A stretch of 63,703 bases of DNA, filler included, from Reclinomonas americana ATCC 50394 (GCA_048213135.1; 16 parts of 16 records of this genome joined end to end with filler, not necessarily neighbours in it), one strand, 5' to 3'. Positions 11,477-56,936 are shown, counted from the first letter of the whole stretch. Notes: generated from the letters alone by a model not told the origin. Numbers and translations are program-made.

Positions 11477-13121
11477 CTAGTTGGCGGACTTGGTGAGAAT
11501 GTTCCACTGGCCGATGCACCACGAGAAGATGTTGATGGCGGAGAAGACGCCGAACGCCAACAGTGTCCACCAGGCGTCGGAGATGCGTCGGAATGTCTGC
11601 TTGTCCGTCGGGTCGGACTGCGTACGGCGAACGGGGCATGGTTAGCAGCAGCGTGGTACGTGAAGTGTGAGGAGAAACGCGACACCTACCGTGGTTGTGG
11701 CCTGGGTGTCCAGCGGGTTGAGAAGCACGCCATACTCGGCGTCGGGCTTGTACACGTCCAGCATGTTGCGACTGAGCGAGCGGGCTCCACTTGTCCAGTA
11801 GTGCCGTGCTAGCAGGATGCAGGCGAACGCCTCGACCGAGATGCCCCACCACAGCCACGCAAACAGGTTGTCTGGTTGCGAGGTGAGACGGTAGCGAGAG
11901 AGAGAGAGAGCGGGGGGAGCGCAACTCGAGGAGCCCTGCGTGTACACCATGGCCGGATCGACTTGCAGCAGCACGCAGCCGAGAATGAGCTGCTAGCCAC
12001 GTGAGTGGACAACAACAACGTGACACACGCTCGCGGAGCAGAGTGGTGAGACGCAACAGAAACCACGCCGTCGACAAACACCATCCACTGCGGCGCTCGG
12101 GTCGAGTAAATGTGCAACAAAATTCCGACGCACGAGCCAACCGTGACCTGTGCGCGCGTGGACATGAGTTGGACAGCCGGCACAACAAGCAAGCACACGG
12201 GGAAGCAGTACCTGCGCGATGGAGTGGTAGCCGAGCACAGCGCGCTCCATGCACACGAGTGCAAGAGCCAGCACCGCGGTGATGCGTGATCTGCGTGGTG
12301 TTGTTGTCGTCAGCGGCAATGAAATCGAAAAACAACAACAAGTACACGCACCCCCACTTGCTGTACGGTGCCGCCTCAAACAAATAGGCCGCAAACACCG
12401 CTGCACTCATGGCATCACCCGACGGCATGCCATAGATGCTGCCAATCTACACACAGCACACAGTCAGCAACGCAACACACCTGCATTTCGTGCAAACAGA
12501 CGCAACATGCTGCAACTGTCCCCCAATGATACACCGACACGGGCGCGACTGACGGAACGCACCATACAGCGCCACCGCGAGCACCAGCGGGAAGCACAAA
12601 CGGTGCAAGAAATGCAACAGCTTCCAGCGCGTGACGCGATACTGCTCCAGCGTGGCCTCCAGCCGCCCAAACGTATTCAGTGGCGCTCCGCTCGGTCCCG
12701 TTCCCGCGTGCGCCGGAACCAACATGAGCACCGGAAGCACCATAATCAGAGCCATTACGATGATCACCACAGTTCGTGGGTTGATGAACTAATGTACGCG
12801 CAGTGTGAGCACAATGGCTTGTGATGTCTGTCTGTCTGCACATGCACCCACCTGCATGATGTATGAGGCCATAATCGTGAAGAAGCCGGGGTCCTGGTAG
12901 CGGCACTTGTTGAGGAAGGAGTCATCGAGCTCGTTGTAACAAGTGGCCGACTGTTGTGCAAGGGCTCCGCTGTGTGTGCACACACGCGCGCGCGCGACAT
13001 TGTGAGCACACGCGCGCGCATTCACACACACACGCGGGCAAAGTTGTGCTCACCTGCTGCAGCAGACAATGACCAGCAGCAGTGCGCAGAGCGGCACAAT
13101 CGCACTGCTCCGAAGAGACAT
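11477..13121 (-). CDS. PAP2-superfamily integral membrane phosphatase-like protein
   Basis: Signal peptide MSLRSSAIVPLCALLLVIV; PAP2 motifs FRQSRP (C1), YGMPSGD (C2, Asp in place of His) and ERAVLGYHSIAQV (C3); multiple TM segments; all introns GT-AG. Confidence 0.75.
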
Positions 13122-13199
13122 TGTGTGAGAGTGACAGTCGTCGGAGAGGACATCTTATCAGGACTCAAGCTTTCTTCCGCATAGCACGCGCTCGCAAGC

Positions 13200-15045
13200 A
13201 TGAGTCTTCCCGTGATCGACCTGCATGATCGCCAGTGCACTGCTGAAGAGCACGCACAAGTGCGTCCACTGCATGTCTCACTGTGTGTCCACACACTCAT
13301 CCTCTTTCGCAGATCTCTCGGCAGATTGGCGATGCTTGCCACGAGTACGGCTTCTTCTATGTGACTCGACACGGATGCAACCGCGCACTGCAGGATCGAT
13401 TGTACACAGAGGCACAGCGCTTCTTTGACATGCCGCTGGAGTACAAGATGCGCATCAGGATGGAGCAGTCGCGAGTGTTTCGAGTTGCGAAGAGAGNNNN
13501 NNNNNNNNNNNNNNNNNNNNNNNNNNNNNNNNNNNNNNNNTTAATTAATTAANNNNNNNNNNNNNNNNNNNNNNNNNNNNNNNNNNNNNNNNNNNNGGAG
13601 ACTCGCCAGTGATTGCTGCTCTCTCTCTCTTTCTCTCATTGTCTGTCTCTCAGGGGTACTTTCAAGTTGGTGGGGAGCTGACATCGGGGCGACGCGACTG
13701 GAAACAGTTCCGTCGTTCACGCTGATCTTTCGATTGGTTGTTGTTGTTTAGTTTACTGCTGGCACACAGAGGTCTGTACTATGGTGCGGAGTTGCCGGAG
13801 GATCATCCACTGGTGCTTGCCGGTACACCCATGCACGGACCGAATCAGTGGCCAGTTAAGTGGACCTTTTGTTTCTCCTCCCTTTGTCGTGTGCTCTTTC
13901 CCTCATAGCGTGACAAGGATGACGAGTTCCCGACGATGAAGCAAGATGTTTTGGGCTACATGCACGACATGACAGAGTTGCGTTATCGACTGTCGCTCCT
14001 CCTTCGCCCCCACCGTCGCGGCGATTCACGAGTGCTGCAGACTCGGCCACGTGATCATGCAACACATTGGCGAGTCACTCGGACTGCCGGCAACATTCTT
14101 CCGCGATGCGTTCACAGCTGGTCTGGCTGTTCTGTGTCTGGCGGTGCGAGGCGGTAGTGGCATGCCAGCTCATGGGTGCAAACACGCACAGAGCCTTTCA
14201 CTCCGTTCCGAATCTTTGGCTACCCGGGCGATCCAGAGGGCAAGTACGAGCCCGGCGCCAAGGAGGACGGCGAGCGACTGTCGTGCGGAGTGCACACTGA
14301 CTATGGAGTGGTACGTGGCGACTCTATTGAAGAAGGAAGTGTAAGCTGCTTCTCCTGTTGCTGACACGTGCACGTATGTGGTCTTCCTGCAGCTCACCAT
14401 TCTCGCGCAAGTTGCGCTGTGTCGAAATTTAATCGACGCCTCCTGTGCTGCTCACACGTCTGACTCGCTGCGTATGTGCACAGGACGAGGTCGGTGGATT
14501 GGAGGTGCAGCACCGTTCCACTGGTGAATGGATTGCCGCACCGCCGATCGACGGCACTTTTGTCATCAACATTGGTGCGCCACTGCAATCGAAGTACTGC
14601 GGCTGTGGAACGAGTCGTCTCATTTTTTTCTCGTGACAGGTGACATGCTGGAGACGTGGACTCGTGGCCTCTACAAGGCCACTCCGCACCGTGTGCGGAA
14701 CCGGTCGGACCGCCACCGAGTGAGCATGCCACTCTTCTTTGATCCGCCATTTGAGTTGCGAGCCGGTTTGCCCCGCATCCACACTGGTGGCTATCGCACT
14801 CACTACCGACGCCTTCACACAGCTGTGTCGTGCGCCCGCTGCCGCAGCAACTTCTGGATTTGGCCACTGCAGCTGCATCGCGCAACGTGACGCTGACGGC
14901 CGAGGAACTGGCCGAGGCAGCCGAGCTGTTGCGCGAGCAAGCCAAGGACTCGGATGCAGGCAAGGAGGGCATTGTGTACGGCCGCTACATTCTTGGCAAG
15001 GTGATGAGAGTGTTCCCCGAGCTCGCCAAGGATGCTGTTGTGTGA
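13200..15045 (+). CDS. 2OG-Fe(II) oxygenase (isopenicillin N synthase-like, DIOX_N + 2OG-FeII_Oxy)
   Basis: [74 protein letters not shown]; reads across the gap at 13497-13596. Confidence 0.93.
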
Positions 15046-15144
15046 TGGACAACTGCGGTACTTTGAAAGAAGAAACGGACACATGGTACACTGCGATTTT
15101 TTCAAAACATGATGACGGGGCTGGTCGTAAAAAAGGGGAATGTC

Positions 15145-23213: not shown

Positions 23214-23319
23214 AGAGTGTGCACTGGTGCGTCTGTAACAAAAGTGCGTGTGTTGGGTAACCCGTGCCGCCAGTTGGGGACGGTGCAACCCGGTAACCCG
23301 AGCACAATCACTTTTCCTC

Positions 23320-25450: not shown

Positions 25451-25481
<31 letters not shown>

Positions 25482-27297: not shown

Positions 27298-27367
27298 GCA
27301 ATGAGAGAAGAGGAGAGAGTCAGTCTGTGTCCCGCAGTCCTTTGGTTTTTCCGAGTCACATACACAC

Positions 27368-29605
27368 ATGCTTGCACGCGTTTTGCTTGTGGTTGTTGCA
27401 CTGCTGGTGTGCATCAGTGCTGGTGGTGGTGTGATGGCTGCTGAGCGGCAGGACCCAGCAGTGCGTGTGTTGTGTTGTGTTGTGTGTGTGTGAGGGAGAG
27501 TCGCTCTGACACCTATTGCAGGCGGTGCATGCTGCGCGACAGCGACTTGGGCAGATGTTGCCTCCGTTGCAGCTGGTGACGGCCAGTGACGTGGCCAAGT
27601 TCATGTTCCCACTGGACCCGCGCACTGCGCCGACCCCCATTCTCTTGCTGTTGCGCGCACTCTCACTGTGACACACTCTCTCTCTCTCTGCATTGTGCGC
27701 TCATGCGTGTGTGATAGTCTGCGTGATGCGGAAGAGTGCAAGGAATGCGAGTCGGCAGAGCGTGCATCGCAAGCGTTGCAGGCGACGATTGGATCGACGC
27801 GTATCACTGTGGCCAAGTTGAATGTGGGCGACGAGGCCAACATGGAGGCTCTCATGGAGCTGTTGCGAGAGAGTCCCACACTCATGCCTTCGTTTGAGCC
27901 TGAGGTGCCGTCGTACTTGGTCGGACGGTGCGTCACCTTCTCGAGTAAGAGTCGATCCTTCCTTCCTGCTGTCTGTCTCATGCATGTCGACGACGCAGTG
28001 AGGGAGTCATTCGCCCGCTGGGCATGGGCGGTTCGGCCAAGTCGCTGGTGGCGTACCTGCAGACGTACGATCGCTCGCCACTGACCAACATCGACAACAA
28101 GAGCAAGAAGACCAAGTGGGCCAGTGTCTCGTCCAAGCCACGTGTCATTGCGTACTTTGAGGGCAAGCCGAGTCGTAAGCGTTGCGTGGTGTCTCTCTCT
28201 CTCTCCGACTGCACCGTTCGCGCGTGCTTACCAGCAGGCGTGCTTGTGTAGTGCTGGAGCAGTTCGAGTCCGTGGGTCGCGTCTTCCAGAACGAGATGAA
28301 CTTTGCGTATGTGACCGACAAGAAGACGGCGCGTCCGTTTGGTCTTGGCAAGTCGTCGCCGGCGCTCCGCGTGTTTGCGCCATTCTCCAAGACGGTGGCT
28401 GTCGACATGCCATCGGCCATGGCCGAGAAGTTTGACGCTGGACAGGTGCTGGAGTGGCTGCACACGGTGTCGACCGACTATGTGATTTCGCTGTCGGCCG
28501 GATGGAGTCCCGGTGCGTGTTTCTTCTTCCATCATTATCATCTCCTCTTTCAAACACAACACGATTGCTCATTTGTGTGTCATGCAGAGGCCCTGAGTGG
28601 CACGCACCCGTTGCTGATTGCGTATGTGAACCCGTCGGAGAGTCGGGAGACCAGCAACGTGATTGGCGCCATCTGGGACGCCCGCAGCAAGCATGTGAAC
28701 AAAAAGGTGAACCAGCAGTTCATGGCCGTGGTGCTCGACACTGTCGAGTTCGACACGTTTGCCGCGCGCCACAAGGTCGATCTCAATGCGCTGCCGGAGG
28801 TGCACATTTTGGACAAGGATTTGGTGCGTTCAACCACCCACCCTGTCGATGCGTGTGCTTGCCGGCCAGGACTCACCGTGTGTGCTGTTGCAGGTCACCA
28901 AATACGTGTTGCCGACCGATGATGTGAACGACCCGGCGAGGATTGCGGCGTTCATGGAAGGCTTCGCCAAGGGCAAACTGCGCCCGACGTACAAGAGTGC
29001 GGCCGAGCCGACCACGAATGCGCGCAGCAACCTGAAGGACGTTACGTACACGCACACGCATGTGCAATCTGCACGCCTCCTATAACATATGTGGTGTGTG
29101 TGTCTGCAGTTTGTGCGCTCGTCCTTTGCGCAGCGCACGCAGGATGTGGGGCGCGATGTGGTGGTCGAGTTCTACACCGGCTGGTGCACACACTGCAAGA
29201 CGCTGGCACCCACCTACAAGCTGGTGCGTGACTCTCTGCATATCCTCCTTCACTGTTGTCACCTCACCTCTCTCGCCAGCTCGCCAACATGTACGCGGCC
29301 GACCAGGGCATCACCATTGCCCGCTACAACTTGGACGACAACGATTTGCCGGACGGCGTCGAGGTCAAGGGCTTCCCGACCATCATGCTGTTCCCGGCCA
29401 CCAAAGCCGCCCGGCCCATTCAGTACAAGGGTCGCAAGCTGGACTTTGAGAGTCTGGTCACCTTTATCCAGGCCAACCGGTGAGTGATCTCTGTGTCAGT
29501 GTGCACTCACTCGTCAGCTGATCGTGTGTGTGTGTGTTGGTGGGCAGGAAAACAACGGGACCAGCTCCGGTCTTGCCAGAGGAGAAGAAGCACGACGAAT
29601 TGTAG
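27368..29605 (+). CDS. Protein disulfide isomerase family member (ER lumen)
   Basis: Signal peptide; thioredoxin-like domains; VVVEFYTGWCTHCKTLAPTY; VKGFPTIMLFP; C-terminal KKHDEL*. Confidence 0.9.
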
Positions 29606-29715: not shown

Positions 29716-30524
29716 TCACTTGCCACCGGCACCCTCCACCAGCTTCCGCACCATCAGCTTGATCTGCGCCGCCGTGAGGAACTCCGAGTTCTGAATGGCG
29801 TTGCAGACGAGTGCCAGATGCCGATACGAGGCAGCATTGACCCACACACGACCATTGACACCGACGGCGATCTCAAACGGAATGCGCGCTCCCACTTGCT
29901 TCAACACCGTGCATTCGGGATCCAGCAACCTGCAGCCCCGCACACAGTGTTCAGAGCACGAACGCAGCAGCAGCCGCCTTGCCACCCCAACAAAAAAACG
30001 CAACTGGCGACACAGCGTCGACGAGCACTCAAACAGCGTGCCGCTCTTGAGCTCATTGAACACACTCTCGCCCGTCATCCACTCCTTGCGACTCGTCGGA
30101 CTCACACACGATAGCTCCGGCTCCACATCACGACTGGCCAGCACCACACGGCAGTACACGAGTGCACCGACCTCCAATCGCGGTCGATTGCGCTTGCTTG
30201 CTCCATCAAAGGCCAACACCGACAGCGTTCCCTGTCGATGACACCCCAAATCGACCTTGTAGTTCTCGCCACCTGCATCCGTCACCACTCCAATCACAGG
30301 GTCCTCCAGAGAGGGAACGTACTGTGAATGCATGCGCGTGTGTAAGAGAGAGAGAGAGAGAGAGAGACATGCCGCGCCTCAACGTGCGCGCGCTCCTTGC
30401 GCGTGCATTGCTGACTGTGTGAGAGAGCGTGTGTGCAAGGGAGTGCATGTGGCCACCAGTGTGCACGGAGATGGCGAGAGGGAGAGCGAGTGGAGTGAAT
30501 GCATGCATTCAATGCATTGTCTTC

Positions 30525-32524: not shown

Positions 32525-34690
32525 ATGCAAAAGCGCCACGCATTACTCGTGTGCGTGTGCACACTGGCCGTGCTGGTATGCACATGGCCTTTATCGTCTG
32601 CCCACGTGTCAACAGCGCCCTCACTGCTCGTCAACACCACGTGCGGACTCGTGCAAGTTGAGAGAGACACCGCCACACAATCTCTCTCCATTTTTGCTCA
32701 CACGCGCTGCGGGTGGTGACCACACAGGGTCGTCTGCAGAGCACAGTAGTGGGAGGGCACTCAGTGGCCTCCTTTGAGAACATCCCGTACGGCAAGGCGC
32801 CTGTGGGCGACCTCCGATGGCGCGCACCCGAGTCGGCGGATTGTTGGGGTCCCACGCGCATTCTCGATGCCACGCGACTGGGACCACGCTGCGTACAGAG
32901 CGACGGCTCTGATGGGAGCGAGGACTGTCTACAGCTCAATGTCTACATGCCCGCGACAAGCAGCAATGCCACGAGTGCCAGCTTGTTGCCGCTGCTGGTC
33001 GACATTCACGGAGGAGGCCTGATGGATGGGTCCGCGGTGGACGAGTACGTGCAGAACTTTGTGGCCACGACCCCCTGCGTGGGCGTGACCATCAACTATC
33101 GCTTGAATATCTTTGGCTTCCTCGCCGTGTCGGAGCTCAGCGAGGAGCAGGGAGGCACCTCGGGAAATTACGGCATGTTGCGTGCACTTTGCGAGTGTGA
33201 GTGTGAGTGTGGGATGTTCACGTGACAGTCATACTTTATGCCTCGTGCGCAGTCTCGACCAGCAGCTGGCGTTGCGGTGGATTCGCGACAACATTGCCAA
33301 CTTTGGCGGCGATCCGTCGCGCGTCACCGTGTACGGCCAGTCCAGCGGTGGCACGTCCATCTTCGCGCTGATGTCGAGTGCTGCCTCTCGTGGTCTCTTC
33401 CACCGCGCCATCTCCTTGTCGGGGTCGCCAAACATTACCATTTCGATGCACGACGCAGAGAAGCAGAACGCGGGCATTCTCGACGCGGCCGGCTGCGGCT
33501 CGTTGAGCTCGTGGTCGGCGCGGCTGACGTGCATGCGACGAGCGTCGATCAAAACGGTGAGTGTGCACAGACCCTCAACATATTTTCTCTCTTTTTCCGC
33601 ACTCATGACGGCACCACGCAGCTCACGCACGCCATCCCGCACTCGTGGGACACGCCGGGCATGTGGAACATGCCAAAGAGCGCCAACGGCATGCACTACG
33701 CCGGTCTACCGGTGGTCGACAGGCGTGTCATCACTATGCCTTTTGGTGACGCCCTCGCCACTGGACTCGTCGATGTGCCGTTCATGTTTGGCAACATGGG
33801 CTACGAGTCGGTGCGTTGCGCGCCGTGTCGTCCAACCACAAGTCGCAGCACTCACCTTTTTCGCGTTGAGCAGGATTACGGACCGGAGGTGCGGGTGGCC
33901 GGCTACACTTCGGCACAGTGGAAGGACTTTATCACCAAGTCGTTTACCGCGTACAAGAATCCGAGCGGTGTGGCGGCCACTGTGTTGGCACAGTACAGCG
34001 CCGAGGCGAACAGCGATCCCCAGATGGCGTTCGATGTTGCGCGCTGGTCGCTGGCGGATCACCCCTCCTACTTGCTCTCACTGTCGCCGTGCAGGCCATT
34101 GTGTCCGACTATGGCCTGTCGTGTGCCAGCATCGCTCTCGTGCGACGTGCACACGCCACGGGCGCGTACAAGAGTCCAATCTACGTCTTTGTCAACAGTT
34201 GAGTGGTGGTTGGTGCGATCCTGCTCTCGCCACGCACCCTCACTACGTATGTTGTCTCTCGGGCAGACTGGAACCCGGGAACGCCCATTTTCGTCTCTGA
34301 TAATTATTATGCGCGGTACGCCTTCCACACGTGGGATCAAGTGAATGGGCTGCAGGTGAGCTCCGCCCCGCTGCGCTGCGCGACACAAATTGCGAGACAC
34401 TGACATCCTCCTCTGTCCACGTGCAGCTGTGGGGTCCCGACAGCGGCTACATGCCCACGCCCACCGACGAGCGCCACTCGCAATTCCTGCGCACCATGTG
34501 GGCCCAGCTGATGACCGATGGGCAGCTGGACCAGGCCGTCTGGCCGCCCTTCTACCGCTCCTCAACCTCGTCCTCCTTCACCACCATGGTCATGCACGAT
34601 CCGCCACAAGCCGTCGAAAACTACAAGGCCGACACGTGCGCCATGTGGGAGGCACTCGGCGTCGACCAGAGGTACTGGTGGTGCGACTAA
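32525..34690 (+). CDS. Type-B carboxylesterase/lipase (secreted)
   Basis: Signal peptide; [82 protein letters not shown]. Confidence 0.95.
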
Positions 34691-39183: not shown

Positions 39184-41645
39184 ATGAGCGCTGCCAGTGA
39201 GGCCTTGTCATCCTCCTCGTCCTCCTCTGCTGCAGGCGCGAGTGGCAGTGGCAGTGGAGGAGGAGGAATGGAGCAGAGTGGCGACTTGTTTGATTTGGCG
39301 CGTGAGAGGCGAGAGTTGCGGCAGTCGCTGGAACGCGACCCGAAGAAGGCTGTGCCCACCTTCCAGCAGACACGCGGTCTCAAAGATATGCTTTGCGATC
39401 CCTTTTGCCTTGCGCATGTGTGTGTGTGTGTGTGTTTATCTCATGCATTGCGTGTGTGTGTGTGTGCATTTGAGTACTGCCTTCTGCCACGCATGCGCTG
39501 GAGTTGTCGGAGCTGCTGGAGGTGCCAGGCTCTGACATCTACAAGGGACTCTTTGTGCATCTGCGCGCACTGGTGGAAGACGGCATTCGCAGCTGCGACC
39601 AGGAAAAGTTGTGTGTGCTTGTCAATCAATGAGAGGGAGTGTCTTCGATGCCTCCTCACCACGCCGAGTGCAGACTGCTGCCGCTGTTGGAACGCACTCT
39701 ATGTTTCCTGTCGCACGAAGAGCTGCGAGTGATTCCCATCTCCATTCTGCTGAAGTTGGATCGCATCGAGGAGCACGTGCTGAAGAGACTGGTGACCGAC
39801 GAACGAGGTCAAGCCGTGCCGGTGCGTCTCGCGCCGACTGCTGTTGTCGTGAGATCGTTGTGAGAGTGTCTGATCAGAGAGGGGAGACACGCAGTCGTTG
39901 CCGGCTGCGCTGCCGATTGAGGTCAAGCGTCGCATCTGGGAGAACGACAAGGATCGCTTTCGACAGGAAGTGTTGCGTTTTGTAACTGGGTGCCTGCCTT
40001 GTCTTCTCGCATGTACCCACTTCGCGATCTGTTGTGTGCACCAGTTTTCCACTCTTTCACCGGTACTTGGAGCACGAGAGCAAGATGACGGCGGAGAAAG
40101 TGGAGGACCCGCGGTTACGTCGCCAGGAGAACGACGTGTTGCGCACGCTGGTTGAAATGGTCGGCACCTCCACCCGCCTGTACGAGTACATTCGCACGTT
40201 TGTGCGTGGCCTGTACGTGCGCTTCACGCAGAGCGCCTTTTGCACACTGCGCTACGAGTTGCTAATGGCGTTTCACGACGAGAATCGGAAAGAGGTGCGT
40301 GCATTCATGTGCTTGTGTGCTGGTCCACCTCGTGCTCATCTGTTGTGTGTGGCGCCAGATTCTCGAATCCGACAAGTGTTACAAGTTTGCGTGGGGCCTC
40401 GACGGCTGGCAGCGTGTGTGGCTAATGGATCAGAAGCGCGTGACGGATCTCACCGAGTTCCTGGCGCCTCTGGAGGGCGGTGCGTGCGCATTTTTTCATG
40501 TCACCGAGTGAGCTGCGTGAATTCACTGCGGCGCCGGCGTACAGCCGACGGAGGTATTTGGTGGGGCGACATTGGCATGATCATGGCCACGCCGTATGTT
40601 CTTGACGTCGCCGTCGGCAACATCTACGAGCTGCTGCAGCGACTGATCGAGCAGCAGAAGCTGCCGCGAGTTGCGGCCGCTCTCCCCTTTTTTTCCCCGT
40701 CCTCTTCATTGAGCGCTCTAACTCGCGCGCGTCGCGCTTGCTCACCAAAAACACAGCACGACAAGGTGCTCCTGTTCTTGTGTCGACTGCTGACACTTGC
40801 CACGCGAGCCCTCAGCCTCATCAAGGAGGGCAGCGGTCGCTTCGTCGAGATCAACGCCAACATTGTGCACAAGTTCCTGCCGGCACTGGTCGGCGTGCTG
40901 GTGGACGACAAAATGCGAGAGCAAGAGGGCGATTGTCCACCGCTGGATCCCGACCTCCCGAGCCTGGCGGCCTCGGACCCAGTGGCGGCGTTGGTCTGTG
41001 TAGCGCAGCTGTGTGCGTCTCGATTTATCGTTCTTTGACCGTTGTGCTGGCTGTGGGTGCGTAGATCTATCTGGAGCACGCGCTGCACTGGGTGGAAGCC
41101 GACGATGTGGAGCGGTTGCGCGAGGTGTTGCCGAGTCTGCTCACGCTCGACAGCTCGACCATGGTCCACACGCACTTTTACGACAAATTGCTGTGGAAGT
41201 TGTGGCACAAGGTGCGCACACTCCTGTCCGCACGCACACAACAATCGGGGTGTCGTATTCAACAACAGGCGTGCGCTTATTTGTGCAGGAATGGTGTGAA
41301 ACGGCGCGGTTGGTGATTGAGGAGTTCTTCTTGCGCAAAATCGACGACTACGCCAATGTGCTGGAACCGCTGCTCACTATGTTGTGTCACGTTGCATCCT
41401 CGTATCCCGCCGACCGGCTGGAGGAGTACATGCGACGATGCCGCGAGAAGAGGCCGCCTGCCGAAGGCGACCAGCAAAAAGCCTTTGACTCGCTGGTGGC
41501 GCAGCTGCAAGCTGCCGTCGTGCCCGTGCGACGGCGGTCCAGTGCGTCGGCCAGTGGTGTGCCGGGCAGCACGCCAACCCCCACGCCGACGCCACATGTC
41601 ATACCCGCGGCGTCGACGTTCAGTGGCGAAGAGCTCCCGCAATAA
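39184..41645 (+). CDS. NELFB: Negative elongation factor B (COBRA1)
   Basis: DPKKAVPTFQ, LPIEVKRRIWEND, RRQENDVLRTLVEMVGTSTRLYE, FCTLRYELLMAFHD, CYKFAWGLD and WGDIGMI match conserved NELF-B blocks. Confidence 0.88.
39386..39477 (+). other. Candidate AT-AC (U12-like) intron in NELF-B
   Basis: Starts ATATGCTTT and ends TTTGAGTAC; removal gives RGLKVPSATHAL, colinear with the NELF-B NGVLLPSLQSAL block; a GT-AG alternative (39377-39474) exists. Confidence 0.5.
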
Positions 41646-42741: not shown

Positions 42742-44228
42742 GTGTGGCCCCCCATTGCTGACCCGGAGTTGCACAGTTACAATGCCATCAAGGGCGGCTA
42801 TTGCAGTGTGTGGACCTCGTTCGGCAACTTTATCCAAGAGTCCGACACGCTCATCAACTTTACGTACGGCTACGTGCGCACGCTGATCAACATTGTCGCC
42901 ACACTGATTGTAGCCTTTGCGGCGAATGCACTCGGTTCGCCGTGTTTATGTGACAACTGCCACGCAGCTTCGCCATCTTACTACTCACCACGCAGGTCGC
43001 TGGGTCGGTTCCATCTGGAAGCCGTTTGCCGGTCTCTCGAAGCGAGTCCACCTCAACGACGACGCACACATGCAGTTTTCGCTGACTCGTGAGGCCGTGC
43101 GGGTGAGTGGTGGTGGTGGTGGTGGTGGTGATGGTGATTCTTCAAGTATGTCATGAACCCACATTTCCTGAGCTGCAGGAGGACCCAACGGGTGGTCTTG
43201 ACGTGGACGATGAAGGCCGTGGAGAGCATCTGTCGCCACTCGGTTCCTCCATCTCCATGTTCAATCTGCAGCGCAGCGACACCTCACGGGCACTGATTCG
43301 ACTCGGCAAGAACACGAAGAGTGTGGTCGAGGCCGACGAGCTGTACCTGCAGAGCCTCCAGCGCGTTGCGTGGACGTCGGTGTCAACAACCCTCGTGATG
43401 GAAGAATGCCACTTTGCTAACCCACTGTCGCAGAGCATCAGCAATCAGTCGTTGTGGTGTGGTTCGAGTCACCTGATTGTGCTGGCGGTGTGCTTCAGCG
43501 CCATCATTGCAGTCATGTTACGTTTTTCGAAACAACACCCATTGTCAATCAACAGGACGCTAATGCTCTCCACCGCTGCATGCACAGAATAAGCGTACAT
43601 GCACCATACGTACCGGCAAACTATTACGCAGGCTCGGGCGTGTTCGGTGGACCGAGTGTGCAGTACGATTTCAGAATCTACATGTTTTGGACGTCGGTGT
43701 TCCTGTCTGTGTCTGGTGCCATCAGTGGCGGGTACGTGCACTTTGGTCGTTCCCATCGCAATGCACACAAACTGCACTCCATTCACCTTCGCACTCTCGT
43801 AGCATCATTGGCAACTACGGCATCAAGAACAGGCACTCGGTGCAGTGGGGAACATTTCGTGTCAACATGGTCTCGTGCATTCTCATAGGCATTGCACACG
43901 ACCTGCTGCTGCTGCGTCAGTCGTTTCCCAACGGCAACGACCCACACCTCGTCCTGTTCCTCCAACTGTTGCGTGGCGGTCTGGCGACGTAGTTATCAGT
44001 GATGTTTCTCTGCCTGACACACGGCGACGCAGGTTCATCTCTGATTTCTGTGGCAGCGAGAGCTCCTTTGCCGGTCTCATCGATGAAACAGTGGCCCTGT
44101 GGCAGGCACCGATTCCACGCAGAATTGTCGTGCTCAATCTCTTTTACAATTTGCTATTGTGCATTCTCGTCTTCTTCGCTGTGGTGGGCGGTGTCACATT
44201 AGTTTTCTTTCAAAATGTATATTTCTAA
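42742..44228 (+). CDS. FEX/CrcB (Fluc)-type fluoride exporter with two CrcB-like domains (5' end in gap)
   Basis: GGYCSVWTSFGNFIQES and DFCGSESSFAGLIDET resemble the GFCGxLTTFSxF motif; GTFRVNMVSCILIG resembles GTLxxNxxGxFxxG. Confidence 0.7.
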
Positions 44229-44269
44229 TATATTTACATCGCGTCCTCCACCCACACACACGAGCTCGC

Positions 44270-47200: not shown

Positions 47201-49855
47201 CTGCGGTCACACAAGGCAAGCACCGTGTTAGATAGCAAGGACACAAAGAAGTGTGCTCAAGAAGAGCGACGCACCTCGTGGCTGAGCTTGGCGTAAAACA
47301 GGCGCTTACTCTCGACAGCGGCCTGCCACAGAGAGAGAATCAACGGTCAGCAAGCAAGCAGCCACTGACAACTCAGTGCCACGCAGCACTCACCGCTGCC
47401 AGTGCTTCGGCCTTGCGGCGTTCTTCGACCTCCACCAGCAGGCTTGCATTCGAATGCAACAGCTGCGTGTGATGATGCAGTGTCAACGCGTGCAAAGCAA
47501 TCTGCAAATCAATGACTTGTGTGCCTGCGCACCTCGTGTGTTCGCTGCTGAACGCGCTGTTCCAGTTCGGTGTTGAGTTTTCGTACTTCGTTCTCCGCCT
47601 CTCTCCGCTTGCTCTCCTCCATGGCCGAGTAGATGATGTTGGCACTATTGTTGAAGTGGTGGTGGCAACATGATACAATTGATGAGTGATACTGCACTGA
47701 ACAAAGAAAGCAAACTGCGGCACAGCACTGACCCAGTCTGCAGGAGTGGATCAATGGTCTCCACCAGTGCTGTATCGTAGCCCTCGGGTCGATTGGCGAT
47801 GCCGACCATGCCGACAAACTCGTTGCGCACGTACAGCGGGATTTGTGCTGCGCCACGTGTGAACAAAAACATCACTCGTGCATCATTCATCATCACTCAC
47901 TCGCTCACTCACCATACTTGTGCAGTGGTGGATGACCGGGTGGCAGACCGCCGCAGTGCGGGTGCGTGTCTGGTGAGTTGGTGATCAGTGCTTCGCCACT
48001 CAACAGCGTCACACCAAACAGGGAGTTGAGATTGCGGAATTCGAGAGTGGTGCCTACAACCATACAGCAGTCGTCTGTCAGTGAAATGCAGCACTGTGAC
48101 GTGTATCACGTCGACGCACCTTCCACGGGGTTGAGAATGGCATTCGTGGCGTCCATGAACATGCGAGTGGCCTCGTTGGTGGAGATGGTGCGGTAGGCGT
48201 GTGTCCGCATGAATGGATCCTGTGTGTTGTCAACAGTCAGCACAACAGCAGCAGCTAGCAAAGCAGAAGTGGTGAGTACGTGACGCAACGCCAGTATCCG
48301 GGTCTGTAAACACTTGGGAGATGAAACCATACTCCGAGTTGGTAATCCACAACACCTCCATCAGCAACTCAGTGAACAGCACACCGAGTGGGGCGCGGTT
48401 GATAAACTGAGTGTTGGCGTGCACTGTGTGTGTGGCCAAGACAATGACCACATAAATGAGTAGCCAGTATACGTATGACTCCAGCTTGCTGACAATCGAA
48501 AGGGACCACGCGCACTCACCAATGGCACGCAGCAAACTGTGACTGCGGATCTTGGGCGATTGCAGTGGTTGCCACACACGAGTCTCTCGGCTGTGTTGCA
48601 CAGCCGTCGGTGATAGAGTGGTGGTGGTGAGGTTGTCGACTTTGGCGGCAGCCGCCGCCGCCTTGGCAGCCGCATACGCCGCCAAGATCGTCATGGAGGA
48701 GTCGGCAGCAGCAGCAGTCGCATACGCAGCAGTGGGGCATACTGCACACTCGTCAGCAGTGCTACCAGTGGTGTTGGTGACAGCGGACTCGCTCGACGAT
48801 GCCGACGCGACCGGCATGAACATTGTTATGCTCCGCGCCGACGAGCCTCGCTGCAGTGGATGCCACTGCGCGTGCAACGGAATACCCGGCCGCACTGCTG
48901 AGCACACGTCGGCCAGCACTTGCGAGGGAAGCGCACGCACTGCCGCCGCCGCCGCCACTACCAGGTCCTCCTTTGCACCACCAGGAGGCGGTAGAGATGA
49001 AGAACGAGAGGATTTGCCCGCCGGTGTCGACGCTGACGACGACGACATTGGAGACGCAACCTCGTCGCACTCATCGGGCCCCTCTGCCGCCGCCGATTCC
49101 GTCGTGTACATGTTGGCGACAAACTTCAGTGGTGAAGTCGACTTGTGGCGCTTGGTGATGTCGGTGAGGGTGGTGGCGGTGCCGAAGGCTCCGCCGGGGG
49201 TTCGACCATGGCGCGATCGCGATGAAGCATCGTGCCGTCGCATCGCCGACGACAACTGCACCGAGTCCACCGTCGACACGCTGCCGCTTGACGACAACGA
49301 GGCGCACGAGGGGCACGACGCCGACAAAGTCGCGGTGGTCTCCGACGCAGCAGCGTCGCTCGCAAGCTCGGTCGTCACTCCCTCCGCTGCGGGAGTGGTG
49401 GTGGTCCCAGTCGAAGACCGCGTCTCCAGCTCACACCCTCCTTGCATATCCGCGATCGCAGCAACAACCGTTGTGGCAGTGGCGGTGACGGTGGTGACAG
49501 CGCTCTCGTCCACGTCAATGGTGCCCGTGGCCATGGCCATCAACGCCGATGCAGACGCGCACGACACCATGGAGCGCGAACGGACGATCGAAGAGTGCGG
49601 CGAACGACAATTGTCGGCACCATCGTCGTTCGAGTCATCGTGGATGCTCTCGAGTGCGTCGACGGCCCTGCTGCCATTGTCGCTGTTGTCGGCAAGAGTC
49701 GACAGGCCGTCTCCCACGGAGGCCGTGCCCCGACACCCAGGTTCGCAATGGGTGTGGAACTGCTGTTGGGGCGGACTAGTTGCCTTTTTTCCGTCGTCGC
49801 ACACCACGGCAGCAGCACTCTCATCAGTCAGAGTGAGCGATGATGAAGACGCCAT
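44270..49855 (-). CDS. Hybrid histidine kinase: low-complexity N-terminus, GAF, HisKA, HATPase_c, receiver
   Basis: GAF (SEYGFI, EFRNLNSLFG, GLPPGHPPL, GMVGIANRPEGYD); H-box AKLSHEMRTPMHAVI; N-box LRQVLLNLVDNAVKY; DDGPGI; GTGLGLPIC; receiver [39 protein letters not shown]. Confidence 0.92.
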
Positions 49856-51053
49856 CGCCAGTGGTACTGCAGCAGCACAGCAGAAGAGACAGAGAGTGAG
49901 CGAGGCAGCGTGCAGAGCAAGGAGAGTGAGAAGGTCACTGTGCGATCAGGAATGCAGGGACGCGCCGGTGATGCAAAGAGAATCAATTTTGTGTACAGCC
50001 ACGCCCGTCATCTCTCGCCCCTCCATGGCCACCACCACCACCACCACCACTACCACTGCTCTTCTTCAGCAACGCACCTCACAGCAGAGTGGATGAGTGC
50101 GAGACTCAATCGCTGCAGCCAATCAAACAACGAACGCGAGGCAATCGATTGGCACAAATGGCGACGAGTTGTCGTTCTCCGTCTCGGCACAGGGGTACGC
50201 GACGCACGACGCAGGGATGGTTGGAGGGGTAATGTCCAGAGAGACCCAGATGCGGGATCTTTCTTGCGCACTGCCAGCGAGCAAACCGACGAGTGGGGGA
50301 TGTCACCTCTCTCGCAACACACAAAATATTTGAAACAAGTGATTGATTGCGCAAATGACCCAAAAACGTGCGCACGCAAACTGTGGCAAGTATGCTTGAA
50401 TGACCTTTTCCGGGTACGCCTGCTTGCCCTGAACGTCGACCACGACCCCCAACCACACGGTTGCGCCGGTGCGCATCCGCTCAACCGGCCCACGACGCAT
50501 ATATTTGATCTGAAGGGGCGTACGTCGCGCGCACAATGCATGCGCATTTATCGTGTGCGCTTGTATCTCTCGAAAGCGGGTCACCAACGAAGAGCTCACA
50601 CAGGGCACAATGACAACTACAACACCACAAACAAATATCGCACTGCGCGACGATTTCGACTGAAGAATCTAAAACCAATCGACATCGCCAATTGCAATTG
50701 CAATTCAAAATGACGGCGCCGGCACTTCCGTGTGTATCGGATCGACAGACGCCGTGCGTAATCCGGTTGCAGCACAGATGCGAAAGGGGGAAAGACGAGC
50801 TCGACGCGGACCGCAGCGGTGGCCAGTTTCATGTATCATATATAAATCCGAACAAATGCAACTCGCAGCGGATGAAATAATCCACGAAAGGCACCCCGCC
50901 GACGCCACCAATCGCAGCGCCTGCCTCTCGACACAACCCACGCTGTATCTGTATTCGTATCGGCGTCCACAGGCCGAGTGCATGCACTTGTTTTCCGAAC
51001 GAAAATTCATCTGCTCACTTCACGACACGTGCCGGCCGATCGCGAGAGCACTC

Positions 51054-54000
51054 ATGCTTCCGCTCTACACCAACGGAGGCGGCGGTGGCGGTGGCGGCAG
51101 TGGAGGCAGTGGCAATGGCACTGCTCTCAGCAGTGCTAATGGTGGCGGTGGCAGCACAGCTCTCAACGGCGGCGGCACCATCTCCGCACGCCCCACCATT
51201 GCTGCGTCGACTCCTCTCCTGCTCAACGGAAGCACCACGCACCTCGACGAGGACAGCGACGGAAAGAACAAGGGTGGTGCGTTGGGGGTGTATGTGCAAG
51301 TGGGGAGTGAGTGTCGCGCTGGTCAACTGACTGTGTGTGTGTGTGACACAGGTCGATTCAGTCTCGGTCTGCTGCTGATTCGCTTGAAGAGCTACGGCAC
51401 CGGCACGAAGATTGCTCTTGCACTGCTCTTGTTCCTGTTGGTGGTGCTGGTGGTGGCGAGTATGTCGTCGTCGCCCTCGTCGCCAGCGACACGCGTTGGT
51501 CTGTGATCTTTTGCGTGCACTCTCTCACTGCACAGTGGGGCTCACGGAACCGTGCAGCAGGTGACATGAACACAGTGGACGATGACGAGTCGGCAGGGTC
51601 ACGGCATGGTCGCCGGCGACGAGTGCGTATCTGTTTGGTGTGCATTGTGTTCTCTGCCCTCCACCTCATTTTTGTTTTCCAACAGCAGCCACCATCACCG
51701 CCGCCTCCGCCGACACGTCGTCGCCCTCGACCGGAACCCGTGACCTCGCTGGAAGAGGAGGAGGAGTACGCAGACGAAAACGACGACTACTACGATGTGG
51801 ACGAGGACGGGTATGCAGACGATGATGGTGCGGAGGAGGATGAGGAGGAAGAGGGCGTTGTTGATGATGGCGAGGAGGGCGACGATGCTGTTGATGACAG
51901 TGAGCCGACGCCCAAAGTGGAGAAGCAGTTGCGTGGCATGCGGAATGTTTACTTGTTCCGACGACTGCCGACTGACGATTCGAATCGGTAGGCCACGGAA
52001 ACGGCGACAGCAGCCCCCTGCGTCCGCGCGCACACCACCGGCTGACGCAGTGGACACATTCTCTGTCGACCCTGATCATGTGATGTTGCGTGAGTGCGGC
52101 GGCAGTTGGCTGGCGGCGGCAGTGAGAGTCGTGTTTGGACATGCTGAAAAAAAAAACTCGACAGGGACGACAACGAGCGAGTGAAGCCAGTGGACAAGGC
52201 TGCACGTCGGCGACGGAAGATTGGCACGCCGGGTCCGCCCAAGGACCGACTGAAGCCGGAAGCGGGCGACAGCGGGAGCGACAAGTCTAGTGCGAAACCG
52301 GAGGAGAATCCCGATGATTTGGTACCGCGGCCTCCCGACATGCCCTCCGGTGACGGTGGTGTGCCTGCTGCCGTCCACATGTGTGTGCGTTTGTGCGTTT
52401 GCGTGTAGCTCACTGTGTGCGCCAACGATATGCAGGATCGCTTTTCGGCAAGATCTCGTCCATGTTTGGCGGTGCCAACGGCAAGAGCGATGCGAGCGAA
52501 TGGGCCGGCAAGGGCAATCGCAGTCAGACGTACAACTCCAAGAACGGTGACACACAAAAGATGCAGGCTGTCAAGGACGTGCGTCTCACTTCCGCCGTCA
52601 CCGTGGTTTTCCCCGTTTCTCTCGCTCAATCCGTGCACGCCTCCTGTTTTTTTTTGCTCCGGGGGGACGCAGGCCTTCATTCATGCCTACGAGGGCTACA
52701 AGATGTACGCGTGGGGCCACGACGAGTTCAAGCCGCAGTCTCGCACGTTCCACGACTGGTGAGCACTGTCTGCACGCCAGCAGTACTGCGCGCGCCGGCT
52801 TTAACGCGTATGAGTGCAGGATTCCCGGTGGCGTTGCGCTGACGGTGCTCGACTCGCTCGACACCATGTGGATCATGGGTCTCAAGAACGACTTCAAGGC
52901 CGGCGTGGAGTGGATTCGGCAAAACCTCTCGTTCGACGTGAACGGAGGCATCTCGCTGTTCGAGACCACCATTCGCGTGGTTGGCGGCCTGGTCAGTGCG
53001 TACGATCTGAGCGGCGAGCGCATCCTGCTCGACAAGGCCAAGGATTGTGCCGATCGCCTTTTGCGCGGCTTCACTTCGTCGAGCGGACTGCCGTTCACCA
53101 CCGTGAATCTCATGACGTGAGTCGTCGCACGAACACCACACCAACCAGCTCGTGTCTGTTCTCATCTATGATTGTGCAGGGGTCAAGTGTCGGTGCCGTC
53201 GTGGACCGGTGGATCGGTGGTGCTTTCCGAGGTCGGCACTCTGCAGGTGGAGTTCAAGGCGCTGGCCGATCGCTTGGGCGACCCCACCTACGCGAATAAG
53301 GTGCTTGCTGAGAGTGGTGATTGAGTGACTCTGATTTGATGGTGACTCTCATCTCCGCACCACAGGTGACGACCATCATCGACGTGATTCGACGCAACCT
53401 GCCTCCCGACTCCATGGGCCTGGCGCCCATCTATCTCAATGTCGATTCCGGCCATTTCACCTCTTGTTGCGTGTGCGATTTGCGAGCTGCGGCTTTGATG
53501 ATTTCGTGTTTTTTGTTGACCGCGATGGCGTGTGGCGATGCGCAGCGCATGTCACATTTGGTGCCCTCGGCGACAGCTACTTTGAGTATCTGCTGAAGCA
53601 GTGGCTGCTGACGGCGCAGACGGAGGACACGTACCGTGAAATGTACGACCAGGCCATGGAGGGAGTGCATGCGGTTTGTCGCACGAGAGTGATTGTGTTT
53701 CGCCGACGCCTGCTTACACTTGCGTTTGTGTGCGTGTGTGCAGCGAATGCTCGACGTGTCGTCTCCCAGCGGCTTGGTGTACCTGGCCGAGCTGCAAGGC
53801 ACCTTCAAGTCGCCCAAGATGGACCACCTCGTGTGCTTTGCCGGTGGTATGCTGGCTCTTGGTGCTCGCGGTCCGCGTGCCAAGAAGGACTTGGAGGCGG
53901 CCAAGGGCATCACTCGCACATGCTACGAGTCGTATCACCGCATGGCAAGCGGCCTCGGCCCGGAGGTGATGAACTTTGCTCCGGGGCAGGATCTGTACGC

Positions 54001-54493
54001 AGGCGCTCGGTACTACATTCTCCGACCAGGTTTCGTGTGACACCTGCTTTCCCGCTTTGCTGCCGCTGCTGAACACAATGTGTATGGCACACAGAGACGG
54101 TGGAGAGTCTGTTCGTGTTGTGGCGGCTGACGCACGACCCAATCTATCGCGAGTGGGGCTGGGAGATTTTCCAGGCCATCCGCAAGCACTGCGAAGTGCA
54201 GGGCGGTGGCTACGCTGGCGTGTTCGACGTGACAGTGGGCGAGACGCAGCAGGACGATCTCATGCAGAGTTTCTTCCTGGCCGAAACCCTCAAGTACTTG
54301 TACCTGCTCTTTGCACCCGACGATGTCATTCCGCTCGACGAGGTGCGTCATTATTTTGTTCTTGTCTCGGGGAAGATGGTCGCTCACCGACCGTTGTTTG
54401 TGTTGACAGTGGGTGTTCAATACGGAAGCACATCCAATCCGCGTCTTCAGACCTGGCAAGGACGCGCCATGGCTGAGGGGCTTCAAGGAGTAG
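51054..54493 (+). CDS. Class I alpha-1,2-mannosidase (GH47), type II membrane protein
   Basis: TM anchor; [89 protein letters not shown]. Confidence 0.96.
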
Positions 54494-54861
54494 ATATCAT
54501 AGTGAAGGCGATTTTTGTTTGTCCCTCACAGTTTGTTCGTCTTTTGTTGGAGAGAGGAGGAGAAAATATGACAGCGGTGAGTGACGTGCGCACACAATCG
54601 CAGAGTCTGCTCTCCCCGCGCGCAACATCGACAGAAGCGACTGACAGAGAGGGAGAGAGGCGATCAGTGAGCGATTGTGTGCCTTCGCGCCACTATTCAC
54701 AACAACCGTTATGATCTCTGCTGATTACATACACACTCTCTTCGTCTCTTGCTCAGCGTGCGGCCACTGATCAAGAGCGACACGTCCTCGAGCGATGTCG
54801 TCAACTGAAGCGGTACGCACGCCTTTTGCACTGAGAGCGCGCGCACGCGTCTCCTTACAAT

Positions 54862-56469
54862 ATGATCAGTGGAGTTGGCGGTGTGGCTCCGTGGATGGAC
54901 ACACTGGAGGCGATGCTGATCGGCGCCAGTGGATCAGTGACAATGGAGAGCGATGAGCCGGCACGCAAGCGACAACGGGTGATGGAGGCGACCGATGCCG
55001 CGATGCGAGACTGCCAGCTGTTGTTGCGTTCTCTCCGAGCGCGCATGGGGAGGTTTGCCTCGTCTGATCGCGCGTCACAGTGAGCTGAACGAGCAGGCAA
55101 CGCGCGTGGCGTTGATCCGCCAGCGTCTGCTCGATCGAGTGGCTGCGGAGGAGCAGGTGCGGGCGATCGGTCGCCAGCTGCTCTTCTCTGCTGATCGTCT
55201 CTCACTGCTACGTGTGTGACGCAGCGAGTGGAGGAAGCGAGCCGACGAGAGGCCGCGGTGAGAACAGCACGCGGGCAAGAGTTGCGGCTTGAGTGCGTGT
55301 GTGTGTCTACTTGATAGATGCCTGCGACTGACGCCGACAGATCGCAGTGAAACACTGCGCGCACTGCAGAGCGAGATTGCGGCACTCGAGGTGGAGGCCG
55401 AAGAGCAGCAGAGACGAGTTGCGCGAGTTGAGGAGTCGTGTGTCGTGCGCGAGACAACTGACGATTGTCTTCTTCCAGGTGGCGGCGCTGGAGGCCGAGC
55501 AGGAGGCGAGACGTGCAGCTGCGGCGGAGGAAGCAGCGAACCGACTGCACCTGGAGCAGCTGGCGCGAACACTGCTGGAGAAGACTGCGGCGCTCAAGAG
55601 CGCCCGCGATGAGCTCGCACTTCTGCAGCGTGACTTGCAGGATGCACGTTGCGTGTGATCGTCCACATGCATGCCAGCAAGTTCACGTGCTGATCCACAT
55701 CGTGGCAAGCACAGGGTCGGTGCTGCAGACGCTGAGGGCGACTACAATGGACTCCTGCTCCTCCTCCTCCTCCTCCTCCTCGTCCTCCTCCTCGAGCACC
55801 ATCACGGCAGCGCCGACGGCGGCCGAGGCCGAGCTGCGAATGTTGCGTGCCGAGTGCGACGCCCTGCAGCGCGAGATGCGTCGCCGGGAGGAGCTCGGCG
55901 AGAGTGCACCGCTCTCCAGTGTGGCCGAGGCACTGCAACAGGAGGTCGCCACTCACGAGCAAACCACTGCCCGTCTGCAACAGCACGGTGCGGCGCTCGT
56001 CGACTCGGTGGCAGAGTGGCGCGAGGTGACCGAGCGACTGCTGCGCTTGCCCCACATGTCCACCCGCAGTGCCACTCTGGCCGCCTTTTGCCGCGTGCGT
56101 CAGACGAGTGATCACCGCCTCCCGCTGACCGACCTCAAGCTCTTTGTTGCGTGGCGCCGAGATGCACAGGAAGAAACGCATAGAAACTGATCGCGATTTG
56201 CTGCAGTTGCACTCGGAGCTGCATCTCGGAGTCAAGGAGCAACTCGACGCCATATCCTCGTGTGTCGAAGACGGATTCGTCCGTGTAGACAACGGAGCTG
56301 TGTGCGCTTTGTTTTGACAGGGGATCCAAATGTAGACCCCGATTCGGAGTGCCCACTCCGACCGATCAAAGTCCTTCACATTGTCCATCAAGCCACAGGT
56401 GAGCACTGGCGTGCCTGGAAGTCAGTGAGAAGGAGACAGCTTGTGTGCGTGCGTGTGCGTGGAGTGTGA
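54862..56469 (+). CDS. Long coiled-coil protein with an N-terminal NLS (weak MAD1-like KVLH motif near the C-terminus)
   Basis: EPARKRQR, heptad-rich exons joined by GT-AG introns, IKVLHI near the end; family call weak. Confidence 0.5.
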
Positions 56470-56694
56470 AGGGGGGGACGAGGGGATAAGCGGGTTGTGG
56501 CAAAAGGCGCGAGTGCGAGTGAGCGCGCATGTGCATCTCACATCCACACCTCCACGCGCCCTTCCCCCGCCAGCCAGTGTGGCGTGTGCGATTGTAGTGG
56601 GAGGAGAAGAGGAAGGGGAAGAAGAAGGGAGAGATGGAAAGCATGAGCGGCGACAGGGTTGTTGACTGTGTGCTTGTTTGCTTCACTCACAGCC

Positions 56695-56936
56695 ATGGCT
56701 CGTCGCCCCGCCCGCTGCTACCGCTGTTGCGTTCACTGCTTGAGAGGCGTGCATGTGTTATGTGATGGCTTACCTCTCTGTCCATTGCTGCTGCGCAGAC
56801 TGCAAGAACCGGCGTGCGTAATCCCTTTTGGTGCAGCACTGGGCAAAGAGAGACATGATTCCTGATTGTGATTGTGTGTGTGTGTGTTTCTAATTTACAG
56901 CGTACATCAAGTCTCGGTACTGCCGTGGTGTGCCCG
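56695..56936 (+). CDS. RPL10: 60S ribosomal protein L10 (uL16), first three exons; remainder lost in gap
   Basis: Exons 56695-56725, 56799-56813 (15 nt) and 56901-56936 give [27 protein letters not shown]. Confidence 0.95.

Follow-up and report, generated by a model that had tools for sequence, protein, structure and literature searches.

How the cut site at the 5' end of an intron (the donor) is fixed when pairing with U1 small nuclear RNA (snRNA) is imprecise is an old question in splicing, and it is raised by the introns of a window of 63,703 bases from Reclinomonas americana ATCC 50394 (GCA_048213135.1), the window being the whole stretch of DNA analysed here. Two classes of donors are found in this window, class 1 with the motif GT[GA][CA]G and class 2 with the motif GTT[GA][CA]G; the class is strictly tied to the last base of the upstream exon, and from one class to the other the whole motif, together with its flanking positions, is shifted by one base. 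Rather than a continuous piece of chromosome, the window is a set of 16 contigs of about 1.2-14 kb, joined by 15 linkers (3775-62171, e.g. 56986-57085), each made of N44, ttaattaattaa and N44 with stops in all frames, and several contig ends cut genes. The contigs, with a GC content of 52-61%, contain eukaryotic genes with numerous short introns, and the best named protein matches of the window come from Phalansterium, Rhizomastix, Pelomyxa, Pharyngomonas and Naegleria.

Introns were derived from protein homology and, separately, by gene prediction. For the homology-only set, a protein-to-DNA spliced aligner was given GT..AG ends, BLOSUM62 and a flat intron cost and nothing else, and it yielded 17 introns, six in a carboxylesterase gene, eight in a GH47 mannosidase gene and three in a PDI-like gene (at least 7 of 20 homologs agreeing). 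The gene finder combined dynamic programming with a codon model learned unlabelled and was iteratively retrained on its own output; one version had no donor model (110 introns) and the other a donor model limited to intron positions +3..+8 (106 introns), and neither was given the exon-side donor bases. The donor-model-free version recovered all six carboxylesterase introns, with predicted lengths clustering at 60-80 nt and ends mostly GCAG or ACAG, and the version with the intron-only donor score recovered 13 of the 14 homology-fixed carboxylesterase and GH47 introns. The 106 introns predicted by the latter lie on both strands between 3945 and 61836, have a median length of 70 nt and likewise end mostly in GCAG or ACAG; 43 belong to class 1, 29 to class 2 and 34 to neither. 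Consecutive positions of the Pfam profiles COesterase, COBRA1, GH47, 2OG-FeII and thioredoxin are matched by the predicted exons; among raw open reading frames (ORFs) of at least 90 aa (382 in total), Pfam matches were obtained for 3 of the 135 searched. Removal of the introns restores conserved reading frames, as seen in the 17 aligned introns, in the continuity of Pfam matches and in an ORF reading M...KHDEL-stop, and judged by their sequence the introns of the window appear to be U2-type GT-AG spliceosomal introns.

In the 106-intron set, class 1 donors follow a G in 37 cases and another base in six, while class 2 donors follow a G in none and another base in 29 (Fisher p = 1.4e-14; here and below a slash marks the cut, and position -1 is the last exon base). 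An earlier note on this DNA had proposed a two-class code tied to the -1 base, and the association proved stronger than first claimed. The -1 base of the 29 class 2 donors is A in 12, C in 6, T in 11 and G in none, against 9.0 G expected from codon-position composition (P = 1.5e-5), in agreement with the claim that neither GTTGCG nor GTTGAG is seen after G. The association by -1 base also holds in these predicted introns when T at +3 is set against G at -1 (p = 3e-9). Likewise, among the 110 donor-model-free introns T occupies +3 in 15 of 19 cases when the exon ends in A, in 8 of 15 for C, in 10 of 14 for T and in 10 of 62 for G, and GTTGCG, the commonest donor hexamer in that set, occurs 22 times and never after G. 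The strict rule applies to the displaced GTT[GA][CA]G motif and not to +3 T itself, which is present in 7 of 56 donors after an exonic G (GTTTGT, GTTCGT, GTTTCG), two of these being confirmed by 12 of 12 homologs. Introns after a G, which according to the note mostly begin with GTGCG, GTGAG or GTACG, include the 37 class 1 donors and the seven +3 T donors just given; the note's count of about 31 of 35 introns beginning with GTT after A or T is here 27 of 36, some of the nine exceptions looking like false predictions; and of the two displaced forms GTTGCG and GTTGAG, GTTGCG is abundant (25 donors) and GTTGAG rare (one). Exons ending in C are indeed mixed, with five GTTGCG, three GTGCGT and one GTGAGT among 14.

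The same pattern is present in the introns fixed by homology alone. Here the displaced motif GTT[GA][CA]G is found in none of the ten introns after G and in five of the seven after another base (T/GTTGCG three times, A/GTTGAG and C/GTTACG), the remaining two being C/GTGCGT and C/GTGAGT; the chance that all five displaced donors fall among the seven non-G introns is 21 in 6188, about 0.003 by hand calculation. In the carboxylesterase gene (32.7-34.7 kb, + strand), aligned to the transcript-derived EukProt protein P0001, the six introns begin in order with T/GTTGCG, G/GTGAGT, G/GTGCGT, T/GTTGCG, A/GTTGAG and G/GTGAGC. The class 2 members are 33177..33252 (cat/GTTGCGTG...GCAG, phase 2), across which the COesterase profile is matched from 27-160 and then from 162-260, 34036..34094 (gat/GTTGCGCG) and 34198..34266 (aca/GTTGAGTG), and those of class 1 are 33557..33621 (acg/GTGAGTGT), 33811-33873 (tcg/GTGCGTTG) and 34356-34426 (cag/GTGAGCTC). 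The GH47 gene was aligned with 12 of at least 120 homologs, its N-terminal half being excluded as poorly conserved and productive of inconsistent long 'introns', and each of its eight introns is agreed by 7 to 12 of the 12: C/GTGCGT, G/GTGAGC, C/GTGAGT, G/GTGCTT, T/GTTGCG, G/GTTTGT, G/GTTTCG and G/GTGCGT. The class 2 intron lies at 53466..53545 on the + strand (ctt/GTTGCGTG, 12 of 12 homologs); on the same strand are two donors in the canonical register after a base other than G, at 52579..52672 (gac/GTGCGTCT, 7 of 12) and 53117-53179 (gac/GTGAGTCG, 12 of 12), and two with +3 T and no displaced GCG motif, G/GTTTGT at 53674..53743 and G/GTTTCG at 54030-54094 (both 12 of 12). Together with one in an RPL10-like gene described below, GTGCGT or GTGAGT thus follows C in three homology-fixed cases. 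The PDI-like gene is complete (27555-29605, + strand, nine predicted exons, the M...KHDEL-stop frame mentioned above) and was aligned with 20 of at least 150 representatives, which support G/GTGCGT in 20 of 20, C/GTTACG in 14 of 20 and G/GTGCGT in 7 of 20. The first of these is the class 1 intron 29224..29279 (ctg/GTGCGTGA), flanked by matches to positions 7-41 and 49-102 of the thioredoxin profile with seven residues for the seven skipped positions, and the second a class 2 variant at 29041..29109 (gac/GTTACGTA).

The strict dependence on the last exon base does not reflect avoidance of the heptamer GGTTGCG by the genome as such, since of 36 occurrences of GTTGCG that are not donors, located in sense exons or on the strand opposite to genes, nine have a G before them. 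In a control using no coding model, a good acceptor 52-95 nt downstream was found for 28 of 90 GTTGCG sites preceded by another base and for 0 of 11 preceded by G, whereas for GTGCG the figures were 26 of 100 after G and 21 of 289 after another base, against a background of 9.6% over all GT sites; the acceptor matrix of this control was trained on the predicted introns. A raw count on both strands displays only a mild deficit of G before GTTGCG (11 of 101, compared with 16% for GTT), because sites that are not donors dilute the signal. A further 35 GTTGCG sites lie outside the gene models, both strands considered, and G precedes two of them; a large part of them probably represents additional class 2 donors, belonging to genes or untranslated regions that the finder missed, as happened with the RPL10-like gene.

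When a mixture of two components was fitted without supervision to intron positions +3..+8 only, it separated GCGTG (66%) from TGCGTG (34%). The consensus of class 1 is H-G/GTGCGTG and that of class 2 is H/GTTGCGTG (H, not G), and the likeness extends to positions that do not enter the definition of either class. The position poor in G is -2 in class 1 (A15 C15 G2 T11) and -1 in class 2 (A12 C6 G0 T11), the former with two G seen and 6.7 expected (P = 0.019); the T at +6 in class 1 (29 of 43) is found at +7 in class 2 (22 of 29), and the G that follows at +7 (20 of 43) is found at +8 (13 of 29). The Jensen-Shannon divergence between the classes reaches its minimum at a shift of +1 both on the intron side (0.084, compared with 1.8-2.4) and over exon positions -4..-2 (0.054, compared with 0.13-0.61). 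Since positions outside the class definitions also move by one, the unit is H-G-K-T-G-C-G-T-G (K, G or T), whose predicted cut lies after its first G if K = G and before its first G if K = T. The two classes are alike in median length (70 nt), in the types of their acceptors, in base composition and in the pentamers frequent near the 3' end (CTCAC, GCTGA), and they occur together in 13 of 22 gene chains.

In the RPL10-like gene, exons 56695-56725, 56799-56813 and 56901-56936 join to read 27 residues, and the first intron, 56726..56798 (+ strand, gct/GTTGCGTT), when cut at the GT gives RYCK, and when both its ends are moved by one base gives RCCK. The earlier note had argued from the Tyr of this motif that cleavage occurs at the GT; the frame agrees, the Tyr being one that we take to be a conserved residue of RPL10. 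For four homology-supported class 2 introns both ends were moved by +1 and by -1 and the scores of the homologs summed. The GT-AG boundaries scored best in two, the carboxylesterase intron 33177 (5648, with 5629 for +1 and 5600 for -1) and the GH47 intron 53466 (1893, with 1851 and 1874), tied with the +1 move in the carboxylesterase intron 34036 (1214, with 1214 and 1186), and fell below both moves in the carboxylesterase intron 34198 (1102, with 1115 and 1103).

The mechanism that we consider most likely, with a probability of about 0.55, is that of one spliceosome in which U1 pairs in two registers while cleavage is fixed by the GU; it is argued here from the sequence pattern and from modelled pairing, and U1 as the reader, its pairing register and its sequence are what we infer. 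A single major (U2-type) spliceosome would remove all these introns, recognizing at their 5' end an element of about nine bases, H-G-K-U-G-C-G-U-G (with K now G or U), whose proposed partner is the 5' end of U1. With K = G the cut would follow the first G (H-G/GUGCGUG), in the canonical register, with the -1 G opposite C9 of U1 and the +1 G opposite C8. With K = U the first G would itself be intron position +1 (H/GUUGCGUG), and U1 would pair one base deeper in the intron, the +1 G lying on C9, the +2 U mismatched with C8, the +3 U on A7 and the +6 G on C4. What would determine the cut is the dinucleotide GU, which U6, U5 and Prp8 read at a later stage, the spacing from the U1 helix being without influence; if so, exons ending in G would for that reason use the canonical form and exons ending in A, C or T mostly the shifted one.

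In order to model the pairing, donors were folded as duplexes with the canonical U1 5' 11-mer and with a U1 carrying an ACGUAC block, taken from a Mastigamoeba balamuthi candidate with assumed flanks. The canonical U1 pairs class 1 donors in the canonical register in 29 of 43 cases (mean -6.4 kcal/mol), and places C4 opposite +6 in 11 of 23 class 2 donors, counted over the six commonest patterns. With the ACGUAC-type U1, class 1 is canonical in 37 of 43 cases (mean -9.5 kcal/mol), and in class 2 (mean -5.1 kcal/mol) both the pair of A7 with +3 and that of C4 with +6, as in the +1 shifted register, are formed by 27 of 29 donors. None of the 29 modelled class 2 duplexes adopts the canonical register, and the complementarity of class 2 to U1 is thus poor in that register and better when slid by one base; its -1 base is never G, and the +1 G would take over the contact with C9. 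Opposite U1 position 5, C is preferred over A by 27 to 2 in class 2 and by 30 to 13 in class 1 (p = 0.019), a stronger preference in the weaker class that is a signature of compensation. This strong preference suggests, by analogy with the Mastigamoeba balamuthi candidate, that the U1 of this organism carries a G opposite the C of the motif. Rfam matched nothing in the window, neither at the gathering score nor when E values up to 1 were admitted, and no U1, U5 or U6 gene was thus located there.

The earlier note had left the choice between shifted pairing, bulged pairing and a variant U1 or U6, and the data favour the first. In a bulged register the +1 G would pair with C8 and the +2 U with A7, one U (+2 or +3) would bulge and the helix would resume at +4. 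Human cells have furnished validated examples of such bulges at +2/+3 (Tan et al. 2016, PMC4856993), the number of pairs is the same as in the shifted register, and the GH47 donor G/GTTTCG (54030, 12 of 12 homologs) looks like a bulged site with G at -1. A bulge, however, leaves -1 opposite C9, and should thus bring about the same preference for G at -1 that class 1 displays (37 of 43); the opposite is observed, with 0 of 29 in class 2 and the probability of 1.5e-5 given above, and for class 2 as a whole we regard bulging as improbable. The main rival to two registers of one U1, although itself unlikely, is that two U1 variants exist, or U1 and some other reader of the 5' site, and that a second snRNA complementary to GUUGCGU reads class 2 unshifted, much as the AACAAAC of Entamoeba U1 matches GUUUGUU. 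It would be consistent with the co-evolution of U1 5' ends and atypical donors in Archamoebae (Roy and Bowser 2022, bioRxiv preprint, 10.1101/2022.06.08.495308), with the amoebozoan best named protein matches of the window and with the high uniformity of class 2, where 25 of 29 donors are GTTGCG. Nevertheless, a separate snRNA would have no reason to copy the exon-side and far-downstream context of class 1, which in class 2 is the same but moved by one base, and a variant that arose from U1 should have retained a C beside its pairing block and hence should favour G at -1, which is never seen.

About as improbable as a bulge is a third reader, U6, U5 or a protein, which would recognize the motif in the main without U1 and impose its own needs on the -1 base. 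U1 itself is unobserved here and canonical U1 does not predict the preference of GCG over GAG, but the length and position of the motif and the requirement that a G stand three bases upstream of GCG fit the footprint of U1 (-2 to +7). An artefact or a non-functional bias, be it hand-picked boundaries, prediction bias, neighbour-base bias, copied introns or a mixture of two organisms, we consider highly improbable and already largely refuted: the gene models are predictions, yet the pattern is present in the homology-only introns, exon bases were never given to the donor model, G does precede non-donor GTTGCG, and the same genes hold both classes. As for copied introns, an all-against-all blastn of the 106 intron interiors gave 22 non-self matches of 13-28 nt, all of low complexity, and no family; interiors that share so little are not copied elements, and an introner-like intron family was rejected on this ground. 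A U12-type identity of class 2 was also rejected, its donors being GTT[GA][CA]G as opposed to the rigid RTATCCTT. A single predicted intron at 7878-7948 (+ strand) starts with GTATCCCTT, contains TTCTCAC some 7 nt upstream of its 3' end and resembles, as a prediction, an intron with the donor and branch site of the U12-type (minor) spliceosome.

Several observations weigh against pairing of one U1 in two registers. The canonical U1 binds class 2 weakly in the model (mean -1.6 kcal/mol), and the full shifted pattern is formed in 3 of 29; the model works well only with a G in U1 opposite the C, which is a guess by analogy, and the pairing partner was assumed and not taken from the U1, U5 or U6 sequence of this organism. 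By pair count, canonical H/GUGCGU is about as good as shifted H/GUUGCGU and yet is about five times rarer (6 as against 29), and the model leaves unexplained why the pair with C9 should outweigh that with C8. The carboxylesterase intron 34198 scores slightly better with its boundaries moved, all junctions rest on prediction or protein homology, and the sample is one 63-kb window in which 34 of the 106 predicted donors belong to neither class, prediction errors probably accounting for some. We give even odds to the broader proposal that U1 has two equally legitimate helix positions and that shifted donors would form a constitutive, genome-wide class of about 30-40% of introns, with the register dictated by the last exon base, the G paired to C9 near-obligatory and the C8 pair dispensable. 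G occupies the position that would pair with C9 in 66 of the 72 donors that fit either motif. Its exclusion just upstream of the motif in both classes may possibly serve to prevent slippage of the register.

Further introns were located in genes recognized by domain or by prediction, among them the sites cited in the earlier note, all of which are in place: T/GTTGCG at 56726, the carboxylesterase A/GTTGAG and T/GTTGCG described above, and CCA/GTTAAGTG at 13855, a class 2 variant (13855..13908, + strand) in a predicted 2OG-Fe(II) oxygenase gene. The RPL10-like gene also contains a 15-nt micro-exon, ACTGCAAGAACCGGC (56799-56813, + strand), between introns of 73 nt and 87 nt, the second of which begins C/GTGCGT (56814-56900, + strand); this gene was missed by the finder because its exons are so small. 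A class 2 intron on the - strand (29930..30004, cca/GTTGCGTT) lies between the S1 and KH exons of an RRP40 gene, as assigned by Pfam; compared with one solved RRP40 chain, its exons match residues 111-192 and 213-276 and are collinear with about five extra residues, a placement that is inexact to the base. Another, at 40670..40756 on the + strand (cga/GTTGCGGC), interrupts a NELF-B/COBRA1-like gene, where the COBRA1 profile stops at 227 and restarts at 230 with two unaligned residues. Four consecutive exons of that gene (39268-41645, + strand) match PF06209, and a search with one exon found no longer homologs. In the PDI-like gene, which has one CxxC thioredoxin domain (WCTHCK) near its C terminus, a fourth intron at 28181-28251 with C/GTTGCG is supported by 2 of 20 homologs and was not counted, the homologs being too diverged upstream of 28.8 kb. 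Relatives of a GH47 exon were found in metagenomes at two loci, with 48-49% identity, too distant for a comparison of donors. A large gene on the - strand (44500-49900) matches GAF weakly, also matches a histidine-kinase ATPase and includes a receiver-like stretch, with a low-complexity first exon of 522 aa and about a dozen introns, and probably encodes a hybrid histidine kinase. Over the whole window codons ending in G are strongly favoured, including TTG, GTG, TCG, ACG, CCG and GCG, and the third codon position is 41% G and 10% A; runs of (TG)n and (GA)n, often intronic, give the commonest hexamers.

Work on shifted and bulged registers has until now concerned a small fraction of human sites and has relied largely on minigenes. 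If two registers of one U1 do operate here, this organism would provide a natural system in which U1 binding and the choice of the cleavage site are separated on a large scale, its transcripts carrying both canonical donors and shifted ones, the latter numbering hundreds to thousands, and in which the separate contributions of U1, U6 and U5 could be tested statistically and biochemically. It would also mean that a donor code can depend on coding constraints where the exon ends. Gene prediction for the lineage would improve, given that the two classes become blurred when one donor matrix has to serve for both, as is evident from the two-component mixture, and a concrete prediction follows for the 5' end of U1, namely a G opposite the C of the motif.

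In ordinary donors, maximal-dependence decomposition reveals compensation between exon position -1 and intron positions +4..+6. The donors of the window are similar in that loss of the -1 G goes with a tighter intron-side motif, and differ in that the motif moves by one base together with its flanks, and is not merely strengthened in place. Atypical donor consensus sequences, of which GTGCGTG and GTTGCGTG are the examples here, are known from several lineages. Mastigamoeba balamuthi has GUGCGC donors and a U1 candidate with ACGUAC, and Entamoeba has GUUUGUU donors and a U1 with AACAAAC (10.1101/2022.06.08.495308). The former shares with the window an atypical donor with C at +4 and offers a precedent for a U1 G opposite that C, although the window favours GTGCGT over GTGCGC by 15 to 5 in the 106-intron set. 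For both organisms one consensus per species is given and, in the available part of the source, no dependence on the last exon base is described, in contrast to the two classes found here; the available text of Roy and Bowser 2022 (10.1101/2022.06.08.495308) holds no word beginning with shift, register or bulge. The Mastigamoeba genome paper reports a GC content of 60.7%, an average of 3.4 introns in each gene and a complete set of the major snRNAs, and its main text, in the part available, has no donor logo. Ostreococcus has the donor consensus GTGCGTG (Irimia and Roy 2008, PMC2483917), the same heptamer as class 1; it is described as intron-poor outside one chromosome, and the available part of that paper mentions no second, displaced class. 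In Mamiellales and Thecamonas, C at +4 is combined with a standard U1 (10.1101/2022.06.08.495308).

Literature searches for GTTGCG, GUUGCG, GTTGAGT or GTTGCGT as donors returned, among the matches listed, only primers and unrelated uses, and those for a shifted register returned, among the matches listed, human work and one speculative remark on tunicates; none of the matches listed reported, for any organism, a class of displaced donors. Shifted donors that form a regular second class linked to the final base of the exon thus appear to be undescribed in the literature searched. The closest parallel is human U1, for which shifted and bulged registers have been described (Tan et al. 2016, PMC4856993; reviewed in PMC9311317). 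The human 5' splice sites read in the +1 shifted register (Roca and Krainer 2009, following the summary in Tan et al. 2016, PMC4856993) resemble class 2 in having an exon that does not end in G, an intron that begins with GU and a pyrimidine, and a motif displaced by one base; their cleavage stays at the GU, as it would in class 2. The validated noncanonical registers together account for about 1.5% of human 5' splice sites (PMC4856993), whereas the displaced class makes up 29 of the 106 predicted introns of the window and 29 of the 72 that fit either motif. Moreover, the displaced form, with the motif GUUGCG and not GUUAAG, is here the normal one after an exon that ends in a base other than G.

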